Below are positions 4,706 through 43,597 of a stretch of 64,000 bases of DNA, piece after piece. Under the pieces are notes generated by a model. The model was not told the origin of the DNA, made no database searches, and worked only from the letters and a program-made list of their open reading frames with translations. The stretch lies in the sequence record NC_055709.1; one strand, given 5' to 3'. The position numbers were made by a program, and so were the translations under genes. Numbering within the stretch: position 1 is the stretch's first letter; each line of letters begins with the position of its first letter. This stretch comes from Escherichia phage phiE142.

Positions 4706-5362
4706 ATGGCAGCACCTAGAATATCATTTTCGCCCTCTGATATTCTGTTGGGTGTTCTAGATCGCTTGTTCAAAGATAATGCTACCGGGAAGGTTCTTGC
4801 TTCCCGGGTAGCTGTCGTAATTCTTTTGTTTATAATGGCGATTGTTTGGTATAGGGGAGATAGTTTCTTTGAGTACTATAAGCAATCAAAGTATGAAACA
4901 TACAGTGAAATTATTGAAAAGGAAAGAAATGCACGCTTTGAATCTGTCGCCCTGGAACAACTCCAGATAGTTCATATATCATCTGAGGCAGACTTTAGTG
5001 CGGTGTATTCTTTCCGCCCTAAAAACTTAAACTATTTTGTTGATATTATAGCATACGAAGGAAGATTACCTTCAACAATAACAGAAAAATCACTTGGAGG
5101 ATATCCTGTTGATAAAACTATGGATGAATATACAGTCCATTTAAATGGACGTCATTATTATTCCAATTCAAAATTTGCTTTTTTACCAACTAAAAAGCCT
5201 ACTCCCGAAATAAATTACATGTACAGTTGTCCATATTTTAATTTGGATAATATCTATGCTGGAACAATAACCATGTACTGGTATAGAAATGATCATATAA
5301 GTAATGACCGCCTTGAATCAATATGTTCTCAGGCGGCCAGAATATTAGGAAGGGCTAAATAA
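4706..5362 (+). CDS. t: Holin (T4 gene t type)
   Basis: 218 aa, N-terminus MAAPRISFSPSDIL, single TM segment, near-identical to T4 holin T as I recall it; position after gene 38. Confidence 0.85.
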   Translation: MAAPRISFSPSDILLGVLDRLFKDNATGKVLASRVAVVILLFIMAIVWYRGDSFFEYYKQSKYETYSEIIEKERNARFESVALEQLQIVHISSEADFSAVYSFRPKNLNYFVDIIAYEGRLPSTITEKSLGGYPVDKTMDEYTVHLNGRHYYSNSKFAFLPTKKPTPEINYMYSCPYFNLDNIYAGTITMYWYRNDHISNDRLESICSQAARILGRAK

Positions 5363-9618: not shown

Positions 9619-9759
9619 TCACCATATTAATGAACGAATAATCATTATAACATCTGAAATGAAAAGCACTACTTGGATTAGTCCAAACATCACACCGTAG
9701 TACAGAACCGTAAGCAACAACAAGAGCCCGAAGGCTCCTGCTAAGATGTTCTTAATCAT
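9619..9759 (-). CDS. Hypothetical small membrane protein (46 aa)
   Basis: Hydrophobic ORF with AAGGCGAG ribosome-binding site; at the T4 ac/stp position between 52 and ndd. Confidence 0.35.
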   Translation of the reverse strand: MIKNILAGAFGLLLLLTVLYYGVMFGLIQVVLFISDVIMIIRSLIW

Positions 9760-9905
9760 TACTCGCCTTTTAACACGTTAATAAGAGCTAAGACCGCTAA
9801 GGTACCTTGTGATACGGCCTGTTGAAATACTGTTGTTTCGCCCGTAACTAAAGTGTTAACGAATAAAAACGACCAACACAGCAATGCAATAATCCATGCT
9901 ACCAT
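9759..9905 (-). CDS. Hypothetical small membrane protein (48 aa)
   Basis: Hydrophobic ORF with GAGGT ribosome-binding site; stop overlaps next start (TAATG). Confidence 0.35.
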   Translation of the reverse strand: MVAWIIALLCWSFLFVNTLVTGETTVFQQAVSQGTLAVLALINVLKGE

Positions 9906-9957
9906 TTTAATTACCTCAAAAATAAATTAAAGGCCTAACTTAATAGGTCCGTATAAA

Positions 9958-10404
9958 TTAGTAACTCTGCAGAATGAATTTGAAATTATCAGCCAGAAGA
10001 CGGTTCATTTCAGTGAGTGTTTGATATTCTGACGTATGGTTGCGAGTGAATGCCAGAGCCAATTGACCTTTACCATAACCAGTAGTCAGTGGTTTCATGT
10101 TCTTAGCTGCAACAAAGATTACATCATATTCAATATTGTTAGTGGCCATGGTACGAGCTAGTTGTGAACGGCCTTGACGAATGTGAGAAAGAATTGCATC
10201 TAACCCTTGTTTAGAACGTTGACGTCCTACAAAGAATCGTGCTGCTACTTGACGCCAGTCAGATGAACCTTTAACGAAGAAGTAAAAACCTTCACGAGAA
10301 CGAAACTCTTTAGAAACTTCAGAACCGTATTCGCCATTACGAACTACTGCAACAACTTCACCACCGACTGCCAGAAGGTCTTTACGAGTTAAATATTTGG
10401 ACAT
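9958..10404 (-). CDS. ndd: Nucleoid disruption protein Ndd
   Basis: 148 aa; C-terminus ...[36 protein letters not shown] matches T4 Ndd. Confidence 0.8.
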
Positions 10405-29265: not shown

Positions 29266-29463
29266 ATGTTTAAACTTCCATCGTTAATCAACGCTATTAA
29301 AGGCAATAAAAAGAAAACTGCTATCGCTGCAATAGTTGTAGGTGGCATTATTTCATGGAACTTCGGTATCGCACCGGTGTTAGTTGCTAATGGTATTATA
29401 GTTCCTTCTGTTCCGTTGGATACTGTAGTTGACCTAGCTTTTGCTGTTATAGGGTTAGTCTAA
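29266..29463 (+). CDS. Small hydrophobic protein (65 aa) on the plus strand
   Basis: Strong AAGGAG ribosome-binding site 7 nt before ATG; Lys-rich N-terminus then hydrophobic stretch; lies between genes 56 and 61, overlapping the gene 61 stop. Confidence 0.4.
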   Translation: MFKLPSLINAIKGNKKKTAIAAIVVGGIISWNFGIAPVLVANGIIVPSVPLDTVVDLAFAVIGLV

Positions 29464-30482
29464 ATTTTAGAATACCGAGATAATCTCATTTTAGCATGCA
29501 ACCCACTTGAAATATTCTGTTTCATATATTCTAAAATTTCTTGTGGTGTTGCATTTTCTTTCATTACCATATCATTCACATCCTTTGAACTCCATGGAGC
29601 TCTATCCCAGAACATAACACGTTCACCTGCATCTACTAATCGCTTCATACGAGCTATAGTATCCGGATGCCTAGGTTCATTATCCATTACCCATACCCGA
29701 CGTTCTTTAAATGGTACCACATCTAAATCTATTGAGCCGCCTGTAATAGCGATTGCATTGGGTATGAATAAACTATCAATAGGGCCTTCCATTACCCAGA
29801 CGTCTCCTTCCTTAACACGTTCAACACCATAAATTTTTGTTGCAGATTCAAAAGCTTTAATAGTGATATATTTTTGAGGAGCATCTTTGCGAAGTGCACG
29901 TCCTTGAAATGACTCGGCCTTCCCGTCTTTATTAAAAATAGGAATCACTAAACGCGGTTCAGGAATCTCTTTCTTATACGTACCAGGTTGAATCTTGTTG
30001 ACCAATTTAGGCCATTCTAATGTGAACCATAATCTGTTCCACGATTCTTTAGGAATACACCGAGACTTAACATATTTCACAATAGGATGCTCTTCAGGCA
30101 GCTTGTCCAGACGAGAACAAGACGGCAAAGAATTTATAGTCTTTTTCTCCGGTTCTGGTTTATGTTCAGGAACCTTTTCAATCTTTGGTTCCATTCTAGC
30201 TTTTTCTTTACGAACTTCCATTAGATATTCACGATAAAGCTCTTCGTCATACTCTTTTAAGTATCCGGAAATTGTATTATGATATTGGCAGTTATAGCAA
30301 TGCACATTACCTGGAGTACCACCGTAATACCATCCGCGGGCTTTCATTGCATCTGTCTGAGAGTCGCCGCAAACTGGACAACGAAACGTTAATTTAAATG
30401 TGCTTGAATTATTGATTTGTCTAAAACGAGGTAGGTGAGAAAACGCACGATAAGCAAATTCATTATCTATCCATTCAGCCAT
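29460..30482 (-). CDS. 61: DNA primase gp61
   Basis: 340 aa; N-terminal zinc ribbon CPVCGDS...CYNCQYH and TOPRIM-like C-terminal region; T4 gp61 size/position. Confidence 0.85.
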   Translation of the reverse strand: MAEWIDNEFAYRAFSHLPRFRQINNSSTFKLTFRCPVCGDSQTDAMKARGWYYGGTPGNVHCYNCQYHNTISGYLKEYDEELYREYLMEVRKEKARMEPKIEKVPEHKPEPEKKTINSLPSCSRLDKLPEEHPIVKYVKSRCIPKESWNRLWFTLEWPKLVNKIQPGTYKKEIPEPRLVIPIFNKDGKAESFQGRALRKDAPQKYITIKAFESATKIYGVERVKEGDVWVMEGPIDSLFIPNAIAITGGSIDLDVVPFKERRVWVMDNEPRHPDTIARMKRLVDAGERVMFWDRAPWSSKDVNDMVMKENATPQEILEYMKQNISSGLHAKMRLSRYSKI

Positions 30483-30521
30483 AGTATTCTCCAGAGGCCT
30501 TAAATTAATAAGGCCATCATA

Positions 30522-31016
30522 TCACAACTTATTAATATTTACTTTAATTCGCTTTCTTTTCTTGGAAGGAATTTGTTCTGGACCTTTATTTACGACTGCA
30601 CCTGTAGTTGTTCCTGATGCAATAGCTTGAGGGCTGCCACCTGAATCACCAGCCACCATATCCTCAAATAAAGGGAGTTCTTTAAATATTTCTTTCTGCT
30701 GTTCTTCTGTAATGTTATAGCGGGATGCTACGGCACTCCAGGCAGACATCATTGAGGCCATTCCATTAAGACCTGGAACAGTACTCATCATTCGCTTCAT
30801 TGAACGAACTGAAGCATGAAAAGGTGTATAAGCCGCTTTCTCTTCGGGAGTAGAAGGACGTTTAAGAACACTTCCACGTTCATCGATGATTTTGGCTTCG
30901 TACGCTTTCCATTCTGTAAAAGGTTTTTGCATTAGTCGAATAAACTTATATGCATAAACTGAATCTATTGCAGTGTTAATAATACCCATAGGTACCTCCT
31001 GAGTATATTTAATCAA
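30522..31016 (-). CDS. Hypothetical protein (164 aa)
   Basis: ORF only. Confidence 0.5.
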   Translation of the reverse strand: MIKYTQEVPMGIINTAIDSVYAYKFIRLMQKPFTEWKAYEAKIIDERGSVLKRPSTPEEKAAYTPFHASVRSMKRMMSTVPGLNGMASMMSAWSAVASRYNITEEQQKEIFKELPLFEDMVAGDSGGSPQAIASGTTTGAVVNKGPEQIPSKKRKRIKVNINKL

Positions 31017-31206
31017 TCACAAAGATCGCTTTATCACCGTTCGCATCTGTGACTTCATATGTAGTGTCTTCATAGTGTGGAATATTCCAAATTACACCAT
31101 CATTAGCTTTTACACTAATATGACATTGGTGTTTTGAAACAACTTCATAATCTTCAAAACTTGTAAAAACACTAATTTTAGAACCAGTGCAAATTGCAGT
31201 AGTCAT
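31009..31206 (-). CDS. Hypothetical protein (65 aa)
   Basis: ORF only. Confidence 0.4.
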   Translation of the reverse strand: MTTAICTGSKISVFTSFEDYEVVSKHQCHISVKANDGVIWNIPHYEDTTYEVTDANGDKAIFVID

Positions 31207-31207
31207 T

Positions 31208-31867
31208 TTAACCTCGATTCATAAATGCATTAAATATTTGGTCATCAACAGAAATTTCTAATTCGACTTCAATTGTTTCAGCCTTTTCTTCAGGTGGTAA
31301 TTCGTATCCACACACTACAATTTTTTCATCGATATCAAAATATACAGAAGCAATACGATTAATGTTACTTTCAGTTAAGTCTAAATCAACATCAACATCT
31401 TTTTGACCTACACTTAAAGGATAACTAATACGGGTTATTTTATTATCTTTAACAAAGAGTCCACCAACATACTCTGTACTACGTTTGAAGTTTACACGTT
31501 TCCGAATTGAAAGATATGATACATCTTTACCGTGAGCTCGGCTCATAGGACATAATGAATAGCTAGAATAAGAGATGTCAAATCCTACACCTTCAATATG
31601 AGCCAACGTGTCATGATTAAACCAATTATAATCATATGCCAAATCCATTATATTGTAATATGTGAAAGGCACAGGATTAACATCATATGTTGTACCTTTA
31701 AAATCTGCCCAGGCAACGATTTCGTTATCTTTAACAATTACAAAAATTACACCAATATGGTATCCGTTATTATTTTCATTCGGCGTTATATTATAACATT
31801 GTGCATTAGGAAATTTACCATATTTAAATGGCGCATTTTTGTGCATATAATAAATCATATTATTCAC
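31208..31867 (-). CDS. Hypothetical protein (219 aa)
   Basis: ORF only. Confidence 0.5.
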   Translation of the reverse strand: MNNMIYYMHKNAPFKYGKFPNAQCYNITPNENNNGYHIGVIFVIVKDNEIVAWADFKGTTYDVNPVPFTYYNIMDLAYDYNWFNHDTLAHIEGVGFDISYSSYSLCPMSRAHGKDVSYLSIRKRVNFKRSTEYVGGLFVKDNKITRISYPLSVGQKDVDVDLDLTESNINRIASVYFDIDEKIVVCGYELPPEEKAETIEVELEISVDDQIFNAFMNRG

Positions 31868-32153
31868 CTGTGATTTCGGTTACGATATCTTTGTTATCGA
31901 AATTAGGGTCACAATACAAAACATAGTTGTACTGCATGATACCACCAGACTTAAGTTGTTCAACAACTTTATTAACCATATTAGGACGATCTCGTTTAGT
32001 GATGTTCATGATATCAGAGAAGATTTGTTGTTCAACATCTTCTTGATTTGCAGTCATTGACCACTCACAGAGGTCTTTATCATAACCTGCTGTAACTGGA
32101 GCTGGTGCACATGATACTGCGAGTAAGATTGCTGCCAATGATAACTTTTTCAT
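31860..32153 (-). CDS. Secreted 97-aa protein, candidate Spackle (Sp)-like
   Basis: N-terminal signal peptide MKKLSLAAILLAVSCAPA; size and location match T4 sp (positional inference). Confidence 0.45.
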   Translation of the reverse strand: MKKLSLAAILLAVSCAPAPVTAGYDKDLCEWSMTANQEDVEQQIFSDIMNITKRDRPNMVNKVVEQLKSGGIMQYNYVLYCDPNFDNKDIVTEITGE

Positions 32154-32216
32154 TTTAACTCCTTAGTTGATTTAATAGGACTACTATACTATAGTCCATC
32201 TATAATGTAAATAAGT

Positions 32217-32465
32217 TTATTCTTTTTCGCGAATAATAATTACTTGTTGGGGCTGCTGAGCAGATTTCTTTTCGGCAACGATAGACCAAATTAAAGTTCC
32301 AATCCAACCAACCATCGTCCAGTTAAAGAGTAAAGATACAAAGAAGATTGCTGTTGTGCTTTTTGTGCCACGAATAAGTGCGATTACCCAAGGCAACATG
32401 TAAATGATGATTGAACCAATACCTGCGATTAAAACTGCTACTGAACTAGCTACGAATAATTCCAT
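32217..32465 (-). CDS. Small membrane protein of the superinfection-immunity (Imm) family
   Basis: 82 aa, two TM segments; YMLPWVIALIRGTK and GWIGTLIWSI resemble the Imm superinfection-immunity domain. Confidence 0.5.
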   Translation of the reverse strand: MELFVASSVAVLIAGIGSIIIYMLPWVIALIRGTKSTTAIFFVSLLFNWTMVGWIGTLIWSIVAEKKSAQQPQQVIIIREKE

Positions 32466-32526
32466 GTTAATTTCCTCTTGATTTGTTATGTTTATAATAT
32501 CTTGTTTTAACTTTGGCGTAAACCAA

Positions 32527-32895
32527 TTAATTAAATTTGTTTAAACGTTCAATACACTGGACATAGTTATTCGCGATTTGTTTCTGGGAAGGCTCTTTAC
32601 CAGTTGTTTCAACATAGCGAATGAATGCGATTTCAGTAGCCTGTAAGCAATGTTCTTTAACGCGTTGTTCTTTTGACAATGCTACAGTATCAGAATCACG
32701 ATAACGTTGAGCATGGGCATCAGCTTGAATCATTCGATTACCTACAGTAACCGGGTCTTCCACTTCAACTTTAGGTTGGTCATACTGTTTAACATTCGGA
32801 TTGTAAATCAATTGGCCAACGTTATTAGGGATAAAGCCATGGGCACCACATCCGGTTAATCCAAATACCATTGCTAAAGCGATTAATTTTTTCAT
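32527..32895 (-). CDS. Lipoprotein (122 aa)
   Basis: Signal peptide with lipobox LTGC. Confidence 0.55.
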   Translation of the reverse strand: MKKLIALAMVFGLTGCGAHGFIPNNVGQLIYNPNVKQYDQPKVEVEDPVTVGNRMIQADAHAQRYRDSDTVALSKEQRVKEHCLQATEIAFIRYVETTGKEPSQKQIANNYVQCIERLNKFN

Positions 32896-32967
32896 TTCAA
32901 TTTCCTCTGTAGTTGATAGAAAGATAGTAACACAGTATGTAGTGCTTGTAAACAGCTATTTTTAAAA

Positions 32968-33156
32968 TTATCGAAAATCAGCTTCAAAAACTTTCTCGTC
33001 ATTAACAAATGCTTTAACTAATGCTTTGTTCACTTCAGCAAGTTGTACCGTAACCCACTCGATTTCTTCACGGTCACCTGATAACATGATATCTTTAGTG
33101 AACATCTCACCGCTTTTAAACCAACCGATAAAAGTAACTTTAGTTAATTTGCTCAT
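32968..33156 (-). CDS. Dmd-like antitoxin candidate
   Basis: 62-aa protein in the 61-41 interval, size and position of T4 dmd; identity not verified. Confidence 0.45.
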   Translation of the reverse strand: MSKLTKVTFIGWFKSGEMFTKDIMLSGDREEIEWVTVQLAEVNKALVKAFVNDEKVFEADFR

Positions 33157-33470
33157 ATTTCCTCACAGAACGCCCATTCAGCATGATAAACTGTAGCACC
33201 TTTAGTATTATTCATTTGAACTACGTCTACCGGAGAAATTACTCGATAGAGACGTGGTTCACCTCCATAAGAGCGTGCTGCTCGTCCTGCATAAATCTTT
33301 GCTAAACCGATATCTTCAGTAAAGAATACACGATTCAAGTTTTTCTTACGTCCGGTTTCAGACAGAACTCCTGTTTCTTCAGGAGGACAAAGCATGTTTT
33401 CGATGTTAGCTGAACTACTTGAACCGTGATAAAAAATCTTAAATTCTGCTTTACAATCGATGGTTTTCAT
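33153..33470 (-). CDS. Hypothetical protein (105 aa)
   Basis: ORF only. Confidence 0.5.
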   Translation of the reverse strand: MKTIDCKAEFKIFYHGSSSSANIENMLCPPEETGVLSETGRKKNLNRVFFTEDIGLAKIYAGRAARSYGGEPRLYRVISPVDVVQMNNTKGATVYHAEWAFCEEI

Positions 33471-33525
33471 TTTGTTCTCCAGTAGTTGATAGGTCTATAA
33501 TAACACAACTACTGGAGAAGTAAAC

Positions 33526-33900
33526 TTAAAAACGTAATTTAGATATATCTGCGTTGATTTCGTTTTGGTTTGCGTCGTATGCAATTAAACGAACCGCTTT
33601 AGATGGGTCATTCAATGCATAGAAATGATGGAACATTGCTCGAACGATATCACCATTTACGAGTTCTACCTGGATAGGAGAACCTTTTTCGAGTTGGAAA
33701 TGTTCATAAGCTTTAATGGTTCGCAGATAATCAAGTTTTTGATTTCCGGCTCCAACGATTTGTACGATACGTTTGCCCATGTTTTCCATACGAGATACAA
33801 TAGTTTTAGGAGCAAGAATAACGTAGGTTGCCAGCGGAGAAACTACTTCAACAGTTGTGTTTTCGGTGATTGCAGTAAAAATTGCTTGAGACATATTCAT
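33526..33900 (-). CDS. Hypothetical protein (124 aa)
   Basis: ORF with AAGAGGAAA ribosome-binding site and own promoter. Confidence 0.5.
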   Translation of the reverse strand: MNMSQAIFTAITENTTVEVVSPLATYVILAPKTIVSRMENMGKRIVQIVGAGNQKLDYLRTIKAYEHFQLEKGSPIQVELVNGDIVRAMFHHFYALNDPSKAVRLIAYDANQNEINADISKLRF

Positions 33901-33929
33901 AATGTTTTCCTCTTGGTTGGTGTAAGTAC

Positions 33930-33959
33930 ATCATATCATGACTAGAGGAAGATGTAAAC
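33930..33959 (-). promoter_or_regulatory. Sigma70-type early promoter-like element with spacer complementary to downstream ribosome-binding site
   Basis: Minus strand GTTTAC, 18 nt, TATGAT; spacer CTTCCTCT is complementary to AGAGGAA at 33908-33914. Confidence 0.5.
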
Positions 33960-33966
33960 CCCGAAA

Positions 33967-33990
33967 GGAGACCGAAGTCTCCTTTTTATT
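33967..33990. other. GC hairpin directly after the gene 41 stop
   Basis: GGAGACCGAAGTCTCC; T-tract follows on the plus strand, not on the minus strand. Confidence 0.5.
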
Positions 33991-35431
33991 AAAATTTTAA
34001 CTCATTGGCTAAGCTATCTAGGTCAGCACGTGTTGCTTTGGCTTTACCTACGCGTTCCGTACGATTCACCTCTGCCTGACGCATCTGAGCACCTGCGTTT
34101 TCATTTACCGTGTTAGGTGTGTTCATGCCTTCTTGCTCAATCTCAACCCATTTCTGATTGCCTTTACGTACACCCATCAGGAATTTATTCCACTTATTCT
34201 TATCACCATATCGTGATTTGATTTGTTTGATAAGTTGTTGTTCAGCTTGTGCAAGTTCTTCGGTTTCAATTACAGCCAACATGAAATCTGCCGTTGCTGG
34301 TAAACCTGCTGATTCTGCAATATCGCTCATGTTCATGTCTGAAGCATCCCATGCTGCACGTCCTACTTGAGCTGCAGTCCATAGAACTGTTTCAGATTCT
34401 ACTGCTAATGCACGAAGTTCTTCTGCGATAGCTTTAACTAATGTGTAACTATTTTCAGTGTAAACTCTGATACGACAAGACCCACAAATACCTAAGTAAT
34501 CGACTATGATTACAGACGGCACAAAGTTCTTCTTGAGTTTCAATTCATTAAGCAATGCACGGAATGTATTAGCATTAGCTCCACCAGTAGGATACTGTTT
34601 GACTACTAAACGTCCTAATGTTGATTTTGAACGCCATTTTTCCATCTTGGCTTTATATTCAGCATAAGATACGTTACCATCATCGATATCATCGAGTGAT
34701 ACGTCAAGCATGTTTGCATCTATACGCTTAGCACAAACTTCTTCAGCCATTTCCATGGAAATATAAAGAACATTATGTCCTGTTTGAAGATAATCTGCAG
34801 CAAGTGAACAAAGGCCTAAAGATTTACCAACGTTAACACCGGCCATTAAAACGTTCAGTGTACCTGTTTCAGCACCACCTTTGGTGATTTTATTCAGAAT
34901 GTTTAATTTGAACGGGACCTTACGTGCTTTATTTAGATAAGAAAGCCAGCGTGCTTCATAGTCTTCCATCCAGTCATGACCAACATAACTATCAAACGAA
35001 ATTGAAAGTGCTTGACGCATAATATCAGGAATAGCTCCTACGTCAGGCATTTTCTTGTTACGTTGTTCTGGAGGTAGTTCGGCATTAGTCTGAATCTCAA
35101 TGATTTTGGACGTGGCATTATACATCGCTTTTTGCTGGACATATTTCTCAGTTTCTTTAACCAACCATTCGTGGTCTTCAGGAGTATCAGCCAATTTTTC
35201 AATTAGGTCTGAAGTTCCTTTATACTCTACTTCGGTTAAAGAACTGTTATCTAAAGCCACCTTTAATGCATTAATGGATGGCATTGCGTTATATTCGTTA
35301 ACGTGGTTCTTTATAATTTTAAAGACATTTTTTGCCGGTCCACGCTCAAAATACTCAGAATCCATATAAGGCCAGACCTTAGAAAAATAAGCCTGGTCAT
35401 ATACGAGATGAGACAAAATAATTTCTACCAC
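33989..35431 (-). CDS. 41: Replicative DNA helicase gp41 (DnaB-like)
   Basis: 480 aa; Walker A GVNVGKS region, RecA-like core; T4 gp41 size and position. Confidence 0.9.
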   Translation of the reverse strand: MVEIILSHLVYDQAYFSKVWPYMDSEYFERGPAKNVFKIIKNHVNEYNAMPSINALKVALDNSSLTEVEYKGTSDLIEKLADTPEDHEWLVKETEKYVQQKAMYNATSKIIEIQTNAELPPEQRNKKMPDVGAIPDIMRQALSISFDSYVGHDWMEDYEARWLSYLNKARKVPFKLNILNKITKGGAETGTLNVLMAGVNVGKSLGLCSLAADYLQTGHNVLYISMEMAEEVCAKRIDANMLDVSLDDIDDGNVSYAEYKAKMEKWRSKSTLGRLVVKQYPTGGANANTFRALLNELKLKKNFVPSVIIVDYLGICGSCRIRVYTENSYTLVKAIAEELRALAVESETVLWTAAQVGRAAWDASDMNMSDIAESAGLPATADFMLAVIETEELAQAEQQLIKQIKSRYGDKNKWNKFLMGVRKGNQKWVEIEQEGMNTPNTVNENAGAQMRQAEVNRTERVGKAKATRADLDSLANELKF

Positions 35432-37046: not shown

Positions 37047-37595
37047 TTAACGAGCCCATTTGATGATTTCTGTAATCAAATCATTACGTTCGCTTGCATT
37101 AAATCCTATAACTTTGTTAGCACCATCATGATTAAGTAATTGATACGTTTGGATTTTGTTATGAATTGCAAACTCTTCAAAATGTGAAATGACTGTATTA
37201 AAACCGAATGAAGACAAAGTAATAAGGTCGTCTTCAAAACTTTCAGTCATTTCGTTACGTGTTAAAATAATTGTGAACACGTCATGGTTTTGGCAAAGAC
37301 GAACATAATCCTGCTCATAAACATCAAGAACCGAGTCAGCATCTTGTCGAATACGTCCATAAACCCAGTTACTAATATATCCACGGTCTAACAGATAAAT
37401 CTTAGTAGGGTCTAAATAATTCAACATCGTTTCGAAACAGCCAACTTCATTTCGAGACTTAACATCGAAACGTCCATCAACTGTTCGTTTAGGGAAATCA
37501 ATCTTTACATATCTTTCACTAATTTCCATTATGTCATTAATGAAAGTTGTTTTACCAGCATTATCCGGGCCATCTACTAAAATAATTTTAGCCAT
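37047..37595 (-). CDS. P-loop kinase-fold protein (NMP/sugar kinase-like)
   Basis: Walker A ILVDGPDNAGKTT at N-terminus, 182 aa; occupies part of the T4 beta-gt slot. Confidence 0.55.
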   Translation of the reverse strand: MAKIILVDGPDNAGKTTFINDIMEISERYVKIDFPKRTVDGRFDVKSRNEVGCFETMLNYLDPTKIYLLDRGYISNWVYGRIRQDADSVLDVYEQDYVRLCQNHDVFTIILTRNEMTESFEDDLITLSSFGFNTVISHFEEFAIHNKIQTYQLLNHDGANKVIGFNASERNDLITEIIKWAR

Positions 37596-37596
37596 T

Positions 37597-38496
37597 TTAT
37601 TCCTCGATTACGACATCTTCGTATTTAGGTATATTATACGGCGAAGAAATTAAAGCATTAAAGTAGATGAACTCACCAAGACCTGGATGGAATACTTCTT
37701 CAGGATTTTCGAAATATTGAATCTTCGGACGTCCTTTAAGAATTTGGTAGTACTCAGTTTTAGTTGGTTTAAAAATTCTAATCAGCGCTTCTTCAGGATA
37801 CTTATTTCTGTCGAAGCTATTATTTGGATCGGTTATATAAAGCGGTTGACCTAATTGAATTGCACATTCAACCACTTGTTCAAAATGATAACACGGATCA
37901 CTAATTCGAAATGGATGAAAAATACCATCTACATGAATAGGAGCCAAATCACCTACAAGACGCTGCATGATGGAAGGACGTATAACTTTCTGCGTTACGA
38001 TAATCTTATTATCATCTGCGCCAGCGTTAACCAGCACTTCCTTTTGACGTTTATTCAACACAGTTGTTTGGATTGAACGATTAACCGACAACATGTCGGT
38101 TTTTAAGAATTCGTCAATATAAAAACGTGGTTTATTAGGGTCTGCAGTGATATTGAAATTGAATTCTACATCAAAAGCGCCGTCATATCCAGTGATATCT
38201 GTGATTAGAAAATCACAATCATAATAAGCAATTAATGAATCAACCACAAATTCATTTTCAGACCAGAAATATTTACGGGTGTTATACGCGTTATCTTTAT
38301 ACCATAATGGAACAAACTTAAATTCTGGAAAAAGACGTTCGCATTCTTTAATATCAGATGCATTACGTGGATATGTAATCACATCACCCGGATTAGCACG
38401 GTGCAAATGAAGTTGGAAGTTGCCATCCTTAAGGATAGCATACTGTCCAGTTTCATAAGACCGCATACTCAAGATAGGTACGCGGAAAATAGCCAT
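37597..38496 (-). CDS. Hypothetical protein (299 aa) in the beta-gt slot
   Basis: No recognisable motif; translationally coupled to flanking genes. Confidence 0.5.
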   Translation of the reverse strand: MAIFRVPILSMRSYETGQYAILKDGNFQLHLHRANPGDVITYPRNASDIKECERLFPEFKFVPLWYKDNAYNTRKYFWSENEFVVDSLIAYYDCDFLITDITGYDGAFDVEFNFNITADPNKPRFYIDEFLKTDMLSVNRSIQTTVLNKRQKEVLVNAGADDNKIIVTQKVIRPSIMQRLVGDLAPIHVDGIFHPFRISDPCYHFEQVVECAIQLGQPLYITDPNNSFDRNKYPEEALIRIFKPTKTEYYQILKGRPKIQYFENPEEVFHPGLGEFIYFNALISSPYNIPKYEDVVIEE

Positions 38497-39212
38497 TAGT
38501 CAAGGAATCCTTTAACATAATCAAAATCACGTTCAAACACATGGGCACTTACCATGGTATGAGTATAATCACCAACTTCTACACCGCATTCGTTAGCGAT
38601 ATAATGAAGTAATTTTCCTTGGAGATAAAAATCCAACTGCATAACAACAGCACAGTTCTGAGAACGCATATGACAGTGGGTATAAAGCTTACCATCACGA
38701 ATATAATAAGTCACTGAGTCAGTACATGGATATTCAAGCGTTTCATCCGAATCAAGCAAAGCCTGATCAGAACTTTCTAGAATTTGGAACACAACTCTTC
38801 GAGAGTTAGGCTTCTCTTTAAGTTCTTTTAGAAGAGCTGGTAATTGGGCCGCAATGCGAGGACCATAGAAAGTGTTGAAGTTCGCCGGCAAAACATCTGA
38901 TTTTGGTTTAGAAATAAATTTAGCGACATTAGGATATGCCTTAAACGCTTCTTCTGCGTTGGTACCACCAGAAATCATAAACTTCCAGAAGTCTTCGGCA
39001 TATTCATAAGAGATGCGGTTAATACGTGGGTCGGTCATTTTGAATGATGATGGAGTGTCAACAACTACTGTCATAGACCCAATTTCATTACAACGTCCAA
39101 TACGAGAATCAGTTACGAATTCCGGGTTTTCTAAAATTTCACGATTGACTGCTTTAAATGCGGTTTGAAAATCTGCGGCTTTGATATATTTCATTGTGTT
39201 ATGTTTTCCCAT
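38496..39212 (-). CDS. 42: dCMP hydroxymethylase gp42-like (thymidylate synthase fold)
   Basis: PCTDSVTYYIRDGKL...HMRSQN block parallels T4 gp42 CTNTVQYLIRDKK...NMRSND; 238 aa. Confidence 0.65.
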   Translation of the reverse strand: MGKHNTMKYIKAADFQTAFKAVNREILENPEFVTDSRIGRCNEIGSMTVVVDTPSSFKMTDPRINRISYEYAEDFWKFMISGGTNAEEAFKAYPNVAKFISKPKSDVLPANFNTFYGPRIAAQLPALLKELKEKPNSRRVVFQILESSDQALLDSDETLEYPCTDSVTYYIRDGKLYTHCHMRSQNCAVVMQLDFYLQGKLLHYIANECGVEVGDYTHTMVSAHVFERDFDYVKGFLD

Positions 39213-39254
39213 GTTTACCTCAATACAATTTATTATATACTCAATTCGTAAAGC

Positions 39255-39494
39255 TTATTTGAATTTCTTGACAATGTTGATATAACGTAAAGCTTCAGCA
39301 TCGATACTTCCAAGAACACTATGAAGAAATGCATCAGCGTAGTATTCCAATTGAACAGGTTCTTTAATCACTTTAGCCGCTTTAGTTTCAAAAAGGCCCA
39401 TCAGGGCCTTTTTAAGAATTTGTTCATTAGTGTTCAGTTTCATAGTCAAAATCTCTTCATTAAGTTGGTGGTTAAAAGTTTTTCTAGAAATCAT
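39255..39494 (-). CDS. Hypothetical protein (79 aa)
   Basis: ORF only. Confidence 0.45.
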   Translation of the reverse strand: MISRKTFNHQLNEEILTMKLNTNEQILKKALMGLFETKAAKVIKEPVQLEYYADAFLHSVLGSIDAEALRYINIVKKFK

Positions 39495-40666
39495 TCCGGG
39501 TATCTCAAAGCGTCATCAGAGTTAGTTATATCAATAATAGATATAGAGTTTTCTGCTAACCCGTTTTTAGATAATTGACGTTTATAATATCTTTCACAAT
39601 ATGTACACGTCGTCCCGCAGATTTCATTAGCACAATCGAAATCTGGATGTCTGAACCACCTTTTTTCTAAAAAGCCATCTAACAAAGAGGTTTCAATATT
39701 TACTGTATGTGAAAACTCAGTCTCATTTTCAAGAGTGAAAATAGTCTCTAAAGGCTTCCACAGTTCTAACAAATTACCTTCAAACTTTTCAGAAGCGTAT
39801 GCTTCAAGAACTTTCAAAATGTAGTCTGTGCTACCTGTACGTCCTGAAACTTTGAATTGAGTGATACCAATATCATTATAAAGTTTCAAATCTTGAGGAC
39901 GAACAAAACGAGTTCTCAACCAGTTAAATGGGTCTGTATCACGAGCTTTAATACAGTGCTGCATAGGATATCCGTTTAAGGATTTAGCATCATCAGCGGT
40001 AACATCAGTACTATGGAAAATATAGCAAGAGTCACGATAGCTACAATGTGTTGTATACCCTTTACCAGCATTAGAACAGAACTCATTTACAAGAACTTCA
40101 AATATTATATTGTTCTTATTGCAAAACTCTGCTGCACGCTTCAGGAAAGAAACTGAACGGTTCTTATGAATTCCACAGCAGACCTTTTTGATATTATACT
40201 GGTCATGCAAGTATTTGATTTGAGTTACAGCATCGACATGTAGAATTGTTGAAACTTCAATCTCAATGTCTTTATTGACTTCACGAACAATTTCCATAAC
40301 AACAGGGTTAGCGATAGTAATACGCCATACGCCTATTGACCAAAGATACTGAACATAATCCTGAATAGCTTTCTTCTTCCACTCAACTAGTTCTCTTTTT
40401 GAACCAGGATTTATCGTGTTGAGTGTATAGTTAAAGCAAATACCTAATTCGTTACAACGTTTAACGTAATCTTCTAACATCTTTTTGTCAACGTCAGGAA
40501 GCCTAAAATCAGGTCTGGCTGCTACAAAAGCCATTTCTCTTGTAGAGCCATATACTTCGTTTATCAAGCTATTAGGATAAGTTTTATTGAGCTCTACGAT
40601 TTTATCGAGAAGAGCTAAATCAAAATTCGTTCCGATTTTAAAAGTATTCATTTTTTTGCATCTCAC
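39491..40666 (-). CDS. Cys-cluster protein (391 aa), possible Fe-S/metal enzyme
   Basis: C-terminal CANEICGTTCTYC (Cx4Cx3Cx2C) plus further Cys; no confident family assignment. Confidence 0.5.
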   Translation of the reverse strand: MRCKKMNTFKIGTNFDLALLDKIVELNKTYPNSLINEVYGSTREMAFVAARPDFRLPDVDKKMLEDYVKRCNELGICFNYTLNTINPGSKRELVEWKKKAIQDYVQYLWSIGVWRITIANPVVMEIVREVNKDIEIEVSTILHVDAVTQIKYLHDQYNIKKVCCGIHKNRSVSFLKRAAEFCNKNNIIFEVLVNEFCSNAGKGYTTHCSYRDSCYIFHSTDVTADDAKSLNGYPMQHCIKARDTDPFNWLRTRFVRPQDLKLYNDIGITQFKVSGRTGSTDYILKVLEAYASEKFEGNLLELWKPLETIFTLENETEFSHTVNIETSLLDGFLEKRWFRHPDFDCANEICGTTCTYCERYYKRQLSKNGLAENSISIIDITNSDDALRYPE

Positions 40667-40708
40667 GTTAATTGATGCGATGGTTTTTTGCAGGTCTTAC
40701 TTAAATTA

Positions 40709-41110
40709 TTATAGATTCGGTTTATATGATTTAAATGTTTCGAATTCGCCTTTATTCATAAGAGCTTTGAATTCGTCAGGACGCATAGCTTTGTCGTCGA
40801 TAATCCAATCATATACTGGTTTATGTGTTAGCAAATTATGGTACTTCAAGCCAATGTTTGCCAAGTTCTGAATCAGACTTGGGAGAATGTCAATTGCTAT
40901 ACGACCAGGACCTACTGACTTCATACCGCGAGCAGTGTAAAGCGTTATGGTATGCCCTGCATCATACAGGGCATTAATGGCAGTCACCATTTCGACGTCC
41001 GGTTTGAAGTTCACGTAATCACGATTGTTATTCCACTCTGTTATACAATCATCGACGTCAAAACAAAGATTAAGCATGTTTTCTACACGGTGCATTAGAT
41101 TCGTTCCCAT
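40709..41110 (-). CDS. HAD-like phosphatase
   Basis: 133 aa; N-terminal FDVDDCIT (DxD-type motif I, non-canonical), TARG motif II-like, WIIDDKA motif IV-like. Confidence 0.5.
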   Translation of the reverse strand: MGTNLMHRVENMLNLCFDVDDCITEWNNNRDYVNFKPDVEMVTAINALYDAGHTITLYTARGMKSVGPGRIAIDILPSLIQNLANIGLKYHNLLTHKPVYDWIIDDKAMRPDEFKALMNKGEFETFKSYKPNL

Positions 41111-42780
41111 TGATGAGTGATATCGCCACCGATTGGACGATAGGAAACACCAGTTTCTTTATCAGTTAGTACCCATTTACCAGGATTTTTTGTAATCAGA
41201 GTAGCCGTTACAGGTTCTGCTACGTCATAACTAATAGAGCCATCTTGAAGTACACGGCCCATGTTACGTAATTGCTTAGTCAGAAGTTCCATACCTTTAT
41301 AATATGCGGCCACCGCTTTAAGTGGATTATTCTTGAAATAACCACCTAATGCAATCCAGATAATTGCCACTGCCAAATGATGATACTCGTTAAACGAACT
41401 CATCTTTCCATATTTGTAAACTAATGGATTGATGTTAATAGTCACATTACAAGTTGTTTCATCAATAGTAAACTGGCCCCAGGTCGGATTAGCGTTGAAT
41501 TCATCATAACCTGAAACAGCATAAAGCACTTTAGCTTCATCATACAATTTTGGCCCGTAAATCTTGGTTTCGCCAAAATATCCACGAGGGTCGATAAACT
41601 TGACTTCGCCGTTATCAGTAATCATAGTATTACTGAAGTTCGGGTCACCGTGAATAACAGAGTACTGTCCCTGAGAACGGTTATGATAACGAATAAGATG
41701 TTCTAAAGCTTGTTTCAACATTGGCTTCAGACGTCCAATCTTAGTGTAGTTCACGTGTGTGATTTTACCAAATGAATCAATCAATGGCTGAATGCTTTCA
41801 CAACGATCAATAACTTTCGTATAGAACTCTTTAGTGAAATCACGACGAACAGTTTCAGGACTTACAAAATAAGTGTCTGTGCTGAATTTCAGTGCATCTA
41901 AAATTGCATCAACAATTTGTGGACGAGCAAGACTTGATTTGGATTTAATATATTCAAATGCCGGCTTACCTTTAATACGTTCCATTTCAAAATTATTTTC
42001 ATTTACCGAAACTAACTGAGGAACCGAATCTGATTTCACTTTCAAATACCATGAAATCTCATCTTTTTGAAGAGCTCGACCTTGTTCGGTTAACGCGAAT
42101 TTAGTTACAGTTTCTTCGCCAATTTCAACTGCATTAAAACTACGATTAAGTTCACGAACTTCATGAGCTTTTTCAAGTTTAGGCATATCACCTAAATCAA
42201 TTAGATTCATAAGCTCTGATTTATTGAATGCGCTGCTGTAAAGGAATTCTACGAAATCACGTCCTTTGCAGTATTCATGAATTTCCTCATCAGTAGAACC
42301 CATATAGAATTCCCAGTCTTTGAACTGATAAATTCCTACAACATTACCGCCTGTTGCACCTACATTAGTGATATTTTCACCGTCGAAATTATATCGACAT
42401 TCGTCACCCTTAACATAGATTGCGTTAACATTCCAAGACCATGAACCAAAATCAGGAATAATATCGCACCAGTTAACAACTACGTTATGCCTGTCTAAAT
42501 CTTTGTGTAATTTAGCAAGAGCATAAGCAGAACCATACGCTTCATCAACTGTACGAATAGTCACATTGAACCCTTCTTGCTCACAATAAGCTCGAACGGT
42601 TTCAGCAAATTTTGAATGAACTACTACAATAATTTCATCTGCGCCAAGGTCAGAATAAATTGTATACAAATTGCTCAGAATAGTGTCTTGTTTATAGTTA
42701 ACAAGCACCTTAGGAATATGATGCGTTATTGGATACAAACGAGTTGCCAGTCCAGCACCAAGAATAACAGCTTTTTTCAT
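41095..42780 (-). CDS. Bifunctional sugar-1-phosphate nucleotidyltransferase / APH-type kinase
   Basis: N-terminus KAVILGAGLATRLYPIT (RmlA/GlmU-type); C-terminus VIHGDPNFSNTMI...FIDPRG (aminoglycoside/choline kinase catalytic loop). Confidence 0.7.
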   Translation of the reverse strand: MKKAVILGAGLATRLYPITHHIPKVLVNYKQDTILSNLYTIYSDLGADEIIVVVHSKFAETVRAYCEQEGFNVTIRTVDEAYGSAYALAKLHKDLDRHNVVVNWCDIIPDFGSWSWNVNAIYVKGDECRYNFDGENITNVGATGGNVVGIYQFKDWEFYMGSTDEEIHEYCKGRDFVEFLYSSAFNKSELMNLIDLGDMPKLEKAHEVRELNRSFNAVEIGEETVTKFALTEQGRALQKDEISWYLKVKSDSVPQLVSVNENNFEMERIKGKPAFEYIKSKSSLARPQIVDAILDALKFSTDTYFVSPETVRRDFTKEFYTKVIDRCESIQPLIDSFGKITHVNYTKIGRLKPMLKQALEHLIRYHNRSQGQYSVIHGDPNFSNTMITDNGEVKFIDPRGYFGETKIYGPKLYDEAKVLYAVSGYDEFNANPTWGQFTIDETTCNVTININPLVYKYGKMSSFNEYHHLAVAIIWIALGGYFKNNPLKAVAAYYKGMELLTKQLRNMGRVLQDGSISYDVAEPVTATLITKNPGKWVLTDKETGVSYRPIGGDITHQWERI

Positions 42781-42961
42781 GTTGTGGTCCTCATTGGTAA
42801 GTAGGAGTATTGTACACTATTCTAGTTAAAGCATTCATACTTTGCTTGTAGTCCAATCATAATCCATCCAATTACAAGTGTTGGAATCATTACCGGAGCC
42901 GTTAAGCTCCAGTAGATAGTCATGACAAGCATCAATAGTAAAAGTCCTATTGTTATTGCTT

Positions 42962-43597
42962 TCATTGTTCGCCTCGTAACATGGCACCTAGTGCACCGCC
43001 TGGATGGAACTTAAGGAAATCATTAGAGGTAAATCCACGTTCAGACGAAAGGTTGATAGCAAACGTATCGATAAGCGCTAACAACAATGTAGTGGACATT
43101 GTCGGAGCTAAAGAGTTCTCGTCAACTTCTACCGCGATACCAGTACAGAACGTATAATCAAAAAGAGCTTCGTATTCTTGTGGAATGTCAGGGTTACAAT
43201 GTAACAGAATCTGTTTAACCTGAGGACGAATCATACGAAGATGTTTAGCAACACCTATCATTTCTTCAGTCTTACCAGAACGACTAATATGAATCAACAC
43301 ATCATTAGGCGCAATGAATCCTGCATCACCGTGAGAATAATGCCCAGTGTTCAAGTACATACTCGGGATACCGAGTGAAGCAAATGTCTCAGAAGCTTTA
43401 GTTGCGATATTAGCGTTCTTACCAACACCTGTAATAATTACACGACTTTCATAATTACTCAGTCCTGGGCGTCGAAGAGTTTCTAGAATAGCATTATAAC
43501 GAGCAGGGTTTTGACTAATTACTTTGGCCATAGCGGCCAAAGAAGAAGCTTGTTTTATGATTGCGTCAATAGCGATAGTAATAGGAGTAGTTTTCAT
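42962..43597 (-). CDS. SIS-domain sugar-phosphate isomerase (KdsD/GutQ-like arabinose-5-phosphate isomerase)
   Basis: ITGVGKNANIATKASETFASLGIPS...HGD...LIHISRSGKTEE SIS motifs; 211 aa, no CBS domains. Confidence 0.7.
   Translation of the reverse strand: MKTTPITIAIDAIIKQASSLAAMAKVISQNPARYNAILETLRRPGLSNYESRVIITGVGKNANIATKASETFASLGIPSMYLNTGHYSHGDAGFIAPNDVLIHISRSGKTEEMIGVAKHLRMIRPQVKQILLHCNPDIPQEYEALFDYTFCTGIAVEVDENSLAPTMSTTLLLALIDTFAINLSSERGFTSNDFLKFHPGGALGAMLRGEQ

Follow-up and report, generated by a model that had tools for sequence, protein, structure and literature searches.

Sp (Spackle) and Imm are textbook functions of phage T4, whose genes lie about 6 kb apart, sp between genes 41 and 61 and imm between 42 and 43, as the T4 gene order bears out. 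In the 64,000-nt stretch of Escherichia phage phiE142 analysed here (the window), the initial annotation described a cluster of three small envelope-targeted genes at 31860-32895 and proposed that a sugar module had taken the usual site of imm, that imm had been relocated beside sp, and that the three genes form a consolidated superinfection-exclusion module. The locus raises the question of what the three genes are, what has moved relative to T4, and whether their adjacency reflects a joint function. We are largely confident of the following answer: this is the Mosigvirus (RB69-type) layout of three envelope-targeted T4 early genes, which would have T4-like activities, and it arose through the relocation of a cassette.

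Identity of the three genes

The three minus-strand open-reading frames were verified at their positions in the window (Table 1), with spacers of 63 nt (imm-sp) and 61 nt (imm.1-imm) between them, and on their Pfam and PHROG scores they are genuine genes rather than chance open-reading frames. Transcription of the trio runs leftward from imm.1 through imm to sp, within the order 41, ORF124, ORF105, dmd, imm.1, imm, sp, 61.2 (AdfA), ORF65, 61.1, 61. Each of the three genes occurs in single copy, with no second copy of any of them found in the window by tblastn and no remnants in the 43-42 interval. A 3-kb query covering the cluster places the window in Mosigvirus (98.8% identity to phiC120, 97.9% to RB69) and matches approximately 154 phage records at 95% identity or more, whilst in 151 phage records a single match spans at least 80% of the query. 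The arrangement is already known, as RB69 has sp, imm and imm.1 annotated between 41 and 61 in its GenBank record (AY303349), with identical genes, order and strand, and around 150 sequenced phages have the locus. The finding of the locus itself thus adds little, since its annotation dates from the deposition of the RB69 genome. The RB69 and window proteins are 98-100% identical, with 97.9% DNA identity over 3 kb, although in the 61.1 region the window has a single 164-aa open-reading frame where RB69 has two annotated ones.

Table 1 Positions of the sp-imm-imm.1 genes, their spacers and the flanking replication genes in the window.
Feature	Position	Strand	Support or remark
sp (gene 61.3), Spackle, secreted periplasmic gp5 inhibitor by orthology	31860-32153	minus	97 aa; PF25676, phrog_1586, PDB 6x6o
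imm-sp spacer	32154-32216	minus	early-promoter-like motif and Shine-Dalgarno AAGGAG
imm, inner-membrane superinfection-immunity orthologue	32217-32465	minus	82 aa; PF14373, phrog_1039, hydropathy
imm.1-imm spacer	32466-32526	minus	early-promoter-like motif and Shine-Dalgarno GAGGAAA
imm.1, predicted lipoprotein	32527-32895	minus	122 aa; PF17578 (DUF5481), phrog_1754
dmd-imm.1 spacer	32896-32967	minus	early-promoter-like motif
gene 41, helicase	33989-35431		flanks cluster
gene 61, primase	29460-30482		flanks cluster

HMM searches upheld the proposed Sp and Imm assignments, with both scores above the curated cut-offs. The 97-aa protein with a signal peptide, described as Sp-like, scored 145 bits against PF25676 (T4_Spackle; cut-off 27, E = 1.1e-42), its residues 1-96 covering positions 1-96 of the 96-position profile, and it also matches phrog_1586. 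It shares 66% identity with T4 Sp in an ungapped alignment and matches the T4 Spackle structures PDB 6x6o (E = 1.4e-39) and 7cn6, the mature 75-aa protein, which aligns to residues 23-97 (E = 1e-33). Its N-terminus, MKKLSLAAILLAVSCAPAPVTA followed by GYDK, aligns with the 22-residue T4 Sp signal peptide, and A22 and G23 at the signal-peptide boundary are invariant between the two proteins. In T4, N-terminal sequencing of gp61.3 showed a cut after residue 22 and a soluble periplasmic protein (PMC7650644), and T4 Sp contacts gp5 through S32, M33, T34, A35, Q37 and N76 and has a disulfide between C29 and C81 (Shi et al., PMC7677548). All eight of these residues are invariant in the window Sp. The partner residues on gp5 (R181, R182, R187, K189, R312, K321, G322 and R326) are likewise all kept in gp5 of Mosigvirus AV109, whose sp-imm-imm.1 locus is 98.2% identical to that of the window. 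These matches establish true Spackle orthology for the 97-aa protein, and inhibition of gp5 lysozyme is predicted for it from the T4 work. An invariant S14-C15 forms a lipobox-like [LVA][ASV]SC in all 19 distinct Sp sequences; a lipoprotein reading of Sp was set aside, as T4 gp61.3 is cut after residue 22 and is soluble in the periplasm (PMC7650644).

The 82-aa protein scored 56.9 bits against PF14373 (cut-off 27.9, E = 1.8e-15), in agreement with its proposed place in the Imm family, and matches phrog_1039 (E = 1.2e-30). It is 100% identical to RB69 Imm and shares 65% identity with T4 Imm across the full 82-83 aa, with QVIIIREKE at the C-terminus common to both. Two hydrophobic segments at about residues 3-31 and 37-64 (about 1-34 and 40-59 by Kyte-Doolittle windows) are separated by a short basic loop, RGTKST (R32-G-T-K35). 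By homology the protein is a true Imm orthologue, and would be expected to block DNA entry as described for T4.

The 122-aa protein does possess the lipobox LTGC recorded in the initial annotation, but it is not an additional element of the cluster: by family membership it is orthologous to T4 Imm.1, whose gene constantly accompanies imm. It scored 37.4 bits against PF17578 (DUF5481; cut-off 27, E = 3.6e-9), matches phrog_1754 (E = 7.5e-29), as did nine of nine family members tested, and shares 35% identity with T4 Imm.1. The lipobox, L13-T14-G15-C16, is preceded by MKKLIALAMVFG and reads LAGC in T4, and both C-terminal cysteines are common to the two proteins. C83 and C114 are invariant in an alignment of nine family members, although in a larger alignment the first of the two is missing from one sequence; one metagenomic variant of the family reads LAGF at the lipobox, with Phe instead of Cys. 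In E. coli, lipoproteins without Asp at the +2 position are sorted to the outer membrane. Of the nine aligned sequences, eight have a lipobox, and none of these has Asp at this position. This rule makes the outer membrane the probable anchor site of Imm.1, which would face the periplasm. An AF2 model of low overall confidence (mean pLDDT 62.7) shows residues 1-46 as disordered and a C-terminal helical hairpin at residues 75-121 (pLDDT about 90), which carries both C83 and C114; as modelled, the hairpin is probably stapled by a disulfide and held behind a flexible tether of ~30 residues. Foldseek of the model against the PDB returned nothing below E = 4, and a BFVD search returned members of the same family only, with no fold relatives outside it. 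An Imm.1 HMM run against 1.84 billion representative proteins hit 11 clusters only, the traceable members of which came from T4-like phages, with no distant or bacterial relatives amongst them.

The imm.1-imm pair across T4-like phages

The T4 pair, with imm.1 immediately upstream and an 11-nt gap before imm, occupies one strand between genes 43 and 42, away from sp; in the window the two genes are again on one strand, but their 61-nt spacer holds a promoter-like motif and the pair adjoins sp. The sp gene itself has stayed put, in its canonical T4 place between 41 and 61 and adjoining 61.2 (adfA), as it does in T4. The same pairing recurs elsewhere in the T4-like phages. The immediate upstream neighbour of imm, towards gene 43, is a gene of 146-162 aa in Gelderlandvirus, Moonvirus, Jiaodavirus, Muldoonvirus PS2 and Serratia phage 4S, and a 167-aa gene lies just downstream of imm in Gaprivervirus VR25. 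All six gene products carry a lipobox together with the two conserved cysteines and match phrog_1754, and in PS2 the two genes overlap by 4 nt. Amongst IMG/VR loci, a lipoprotein gene of the phrog_1754 family adjoins imm in 21 of 21 that are T4-like, whilst the same pairing was found in 3 of 59 non-T4 loci with an Imm domain. As an imm.1-family gene stands beside imm in every T4-like genome sampled, this implies that imm.1 and imm moved as a unit. The initial annotation was right that imm occupies a different place from that in T4, but the difference lies in the place of the imm.1-imm pair and not of imm alone. Proximity to sp is a feature of one genus: among the loci compared, sp comes within 5 kb of imm in the Mosigvirus locus alone, and outside Mosigvirus it remains in the 41-61 interval.

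The initial annotation was also right that the 43-42 interval of the window contains a sugar-type module, encoding a SIS-domain protein, a nucleotidyl-transferase and a U32-like protein, together with small open-reading frames, and no imm. In Serratia phage 4S, however, imm.1-imm lies between gene 43 and a pair of arabinose-5-phosphate isomerase and GlmU-type genes, and since this phage holds the pair beside a similar sugar module, displacement by the module is not required and its presence is an insufficient cause of the move.

Promoter-like motifs and a route for the relocation

A consensus scan detected promoter-like motifs in all three spacers: TTTACA-17-TATAGT at 32211-32183 (imm-sp), TTTACG-17-TATTAT at 32522-32494 (imm.1-imm) and GTTTACA-17-TACTAT at 32952-32924 (dmd-imm.1). 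All three are correctly oriented, followed by a Shine-Dalgarno sequence before each gene, and are near the T4-type early consensus TTTACW-N17-TAYWAT (Comeau et al., PMC4122927). The region holds 22 promoter-like sites against 12.8 ± 3.8 expected, a mild enrichment, and the three motifs are treated here as promoter predictions. The -35 box, -10 box and leader of the dmd-imm.1 motif (CTGTTTACAAG...TACTAT...CTATCAACTAC) recur upstream of T4 imm.1, and the imm.1 promoter probably moved along with the genes. In RB69 the identical predicted imm.1 promoter comes after gene 61.4, which lies between imm.1 and dmd and is absent from the window, a clean 205-bp difference that leaves this promoter intact. 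The imm leader in turn shares 71% identity over 41 nt with the imm.1 leader (repeat D1), and the leader repeats D1 and D3 flank genes of the region.

We propose that a promoter-imm.1-imm cassette was shifted from the 43-42 interval to a place between sp and 61.4 in the 41-61 interval, probably by recombination between the repeated early-promoter/leader sequences of T4-like plastic regions. Shuffling by recombination between such short repeats has been described for these regions (PMC2839356), and the locus has in common with the PeSL (promoter/stem-loop) cassettes of T4-like phages (Arbiol 2010, Comeau 2014) its short early-promoter/leader repeats, which separate small non-essential genes of a plastic region. 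It is plausible that the repeats at this locus were the substrate for both the move of imm.1-imm and the 61.4 difference. PeSL cassettes, however, carry stem-loops, whereas the three spacers of the window showed no significant stem-loop or terminator (z = -0.40 for imm-sp, -0.55 and +0.96 for the others), and for this reason recombination is a route that we infer. An Rfam scan of 30500-34000 returned nothing credible, with one miRNA-family match at E = 0.13.

Joint and separate functions at the envelope

By analogy with T4, the 22-residue Sec signal peptide would export Sp to the periplasm, where it would bind the lysozyme domain of the tail-spike protein gp5 and inhibit it allosterically, limiting wall damage by free gp5 and by secondary phages (lysis from without, one component of exclusion). 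Imm, in the inner membrane, would stop the DNA of secondary T-even-type phages from reaching the cytoplasm, and Imm.1, through its outer-membrane anchor, tether and helical hairpin, would assist or modulate Imm, a role suggested by the constant linkage of the two genes. The three proteins would thus work as in T4, independently yet simultaneously; in T4, exclusion is the combined work of Imm and Sp and takes effect after adsorption (PMC6832632).

We found no evidence that the trio is an integrated functional module; what was observed is adjacency, and only this part of the proposed consolidated exclusion module stands. On the modular reading the three proteins would be co-regulated and in physical cooperation across the envelope, with selection for this having brought and kept the genes together. 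Their products are indeed predicted for the outer membrane (the lipoprotein), the periplasm (Sp) and the inner membrane (Imm), and the tight linkage of imm.1 and imm in every T4-like genus sampled, from 11 nt in T4 to overlap in PS2, fits such a view. The adjacency is also kept in about 150 Mosigvirus genomes, but as these are about 98% identical its conservation counts as one event, and sp stands beside imm in no other genus among those compared. T4, moreover, functions with sp and imm about 6 kb apart, each gene of the window has a separate promoter-like motif, and T4 Sp and gp5 lysozyme bind 1:1 without partners, the inhibition being allosteric (PMC7677548, PMC7650644). We consider an integrated module improbable. 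Less probable still is an Imm-independent action of Imm.1 on an outer-membrane component, whereby the lipoprotein would block a receptor or entry as do T5 Llp and Cor from T1/phi80-like phages, which are also small phage lipoproteins discussed for superinfection exclusion. Imm.1 resembles these in being small, with an early-promoter-like motif upstream and probable sorting to the outer membrane, yet Pfam, PHROG, Foldseek PDB and BFVD searches revealed no likeness to them in sequence or fold. One family member has a weak match to a Cor PHROG (E = 8e-4), but this was one of nine members and the level is explicable by the lipoprotein signal peptide, whilst the window protein matches phrog_1754 and DUF5481 only. 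Adsorption is not blocked in T4-type exclusion (PMC6832632), and linkage as strict as that of imm.1 to imm (21/21) suggests that its product has a role connected with Imm.

A further possibility, which we regard as rather unlikely but to be taken seriously, is that the cluster serves chiefly to protect the envelope, through resistance to lysis from without, stability of lysis inhibition and neutralisation of free gp5, with genome exclusion secondary. The exclusion role of Sp is contested, because gp61.3 overexpression left the T4 titre unchanged and Kanamaru et al. propose neutralisation of free gp5, whose leakage into the periplasm lyses cells, as its main role (PMC7650644). These data weaken the simple expectation that plasmid expression of Sp gives exclusion. 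Lysis inhibition collapses prematurely in sp mutants and imm mutants alike (PMC6832632), which also favours protection. In classical T4 genetics, however, genetic exclusion is attributed to imm and sp, and RB69, reportedly without lysis inhibition, nevertheless retains all three genes.

Within the layout that we favour, of T4-like genes joined by cassette relocation, a role together with Imm is the most economical guess for Imm.1. A more specific suggestion, offered tentatively and on balance doubtful, is that Imm.1 is an unrecognised partner of Imm and that its lipid-anchored periplasmic hairpin and inner-membrane Imm jointly form the actual block to the passage of DNA out of the tail tube. 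Against a requirement for Imm.1, Lu and Henning are said to have obtained immunity in 1989 from plasmid-borne imm alone. If true, the partnership would explain why a lipoprotein gene stands beside imm in all the T4-like genera sampled, irrespective of locus, and the Mosigvirus layout would gather all the envelope-acting exclusion factors at one place. The relocation of promoter, imm.1 and imm would provide a clean case of a cassette shuffled from one plastic region of T4-like phages to another, and the invariable pairing of imm with a lipoprotein gene points to a candidate partner of Imm.

A putative Arr-like protein and the adjoining hairpin

The small protein encoded by ORF105 (RB69ORF040c), between ORF124 and dmd, looks like a miniature ADP-ribosyltransferase of the Arr type, a reading that draws on sequence comparison and on a predicted structure. 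The Pfam match to Arr-ms was below threshold (E = 0.077). Compared with PDB folds, the AF2 model (pLDDT 85) came closest to Arr (9iaf; E = 0.032, prob 1.0, TMq 0.63), with ParT, the A subunits of cholera- and pertussis-like toxins, and tankyrase as the next matches. We collected 117 homologues sharing 44–97% identity, those bearing names coming from T4-like phages, and H15-G16, E38, R41, K43-N44, Y60 and G62-R63 were invariant across the family. One GenBank record, that of Pantoea phage Phynn, already labels the protein an ADP-ribosyl transferase. The inverted repeat next to ORF105 overlaps a promoter-like site and a repeated leader, CAACTACTGGAGAA, and is the sole PeSL-like (early-promoter/stem-loop) combination of promoter and hairpin in the stretch examined.

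Features of the 41–61 and 43–42 intervals in the window
Feature	Coordinates	Strand	Remarks
61.1 region	30522-31016	-	one 164-aa ORF, TTG start
Gene 61.2 (AdfA, anti-DarT factor)	31208-31867	-	Pfam 5e-119
sp	31860-32153	-	
ORF105	33153-33470	-	phrog_2110 'unknown'
Inverted repeat	33470-33524		ORF124–ORF105 spacer; 19 nt, 89% complementary, 17-nt loop
Module between genes 43 and 42	37047-43597	-	SIS-domain protein, nucleotidyl-transferase, U32-like protein, small ORFs

The imm.1–imm–sp neighbourhood

In RB69 and T4 gene 61.4 adjoins dmd, whereas the window lacks it, a form shared with the close relative phiC120. The absence is a clean 205-bp difference (window 32896-32967 vs positions 4897-5170 of the RB69 locus used for comparison), which leaves the promoter-like motif of imm.1 intact and changes the final codons of Dmd. 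The name of Imm.1 itself varies between databases: RefSeq calls the T4 gene (positions 9637-10014 of the locus taken from NC_000866) an 'iduronate sulfatase', a name also met in Yersinia phage fPS-2. Pfam and PHROG scans lent this name no support, the family matching DUF5481 and phrog_1754 only. Many GenBank records instead use 'immunity protein', a label apparently carried over from the neighbouring gene.

The genes between 43 and 42, the interval where T4 keeps imm.1–imm, are presumably a module tied to the arabinosyl-hmC DNA modification of RB69; in Serratia phage 4S, similar isomerase/GlmU-type genes lie immediately after imm.1–imm. Within the Sp signal peptide, residues 12–15 form a lipobox-like [LVA][ASV]SC motif in which Ser14-Cys15 are invariant in all 19 distinct Sp sequences collected, with varying flanking residues. 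Published N-terminal sequencing placed the cleavage of T4 gp61.3 after residue 22 (PMC7650644).

Genes 61.1 and 61.2

The single ORF of the 61.1 region corresponds to two annotated ORFs in RB69 (61.1 and ORF032c), a discrepancy that stems either from a frameshift or from how the annotation was divided, and it is annotated at 155 aa, rather than 164 aa, in phiC120. Downstream of sp, the AdfA of the window carries Arg at the equivalent of RB69 R164, where T4 AdfA has His, and the Arg allele has been reported as failing to neutralise DarT1 (PMC11825919). Dmd is encoded upstream, and the 41–61 interval is a mix of counter-defence and exclusion genes.
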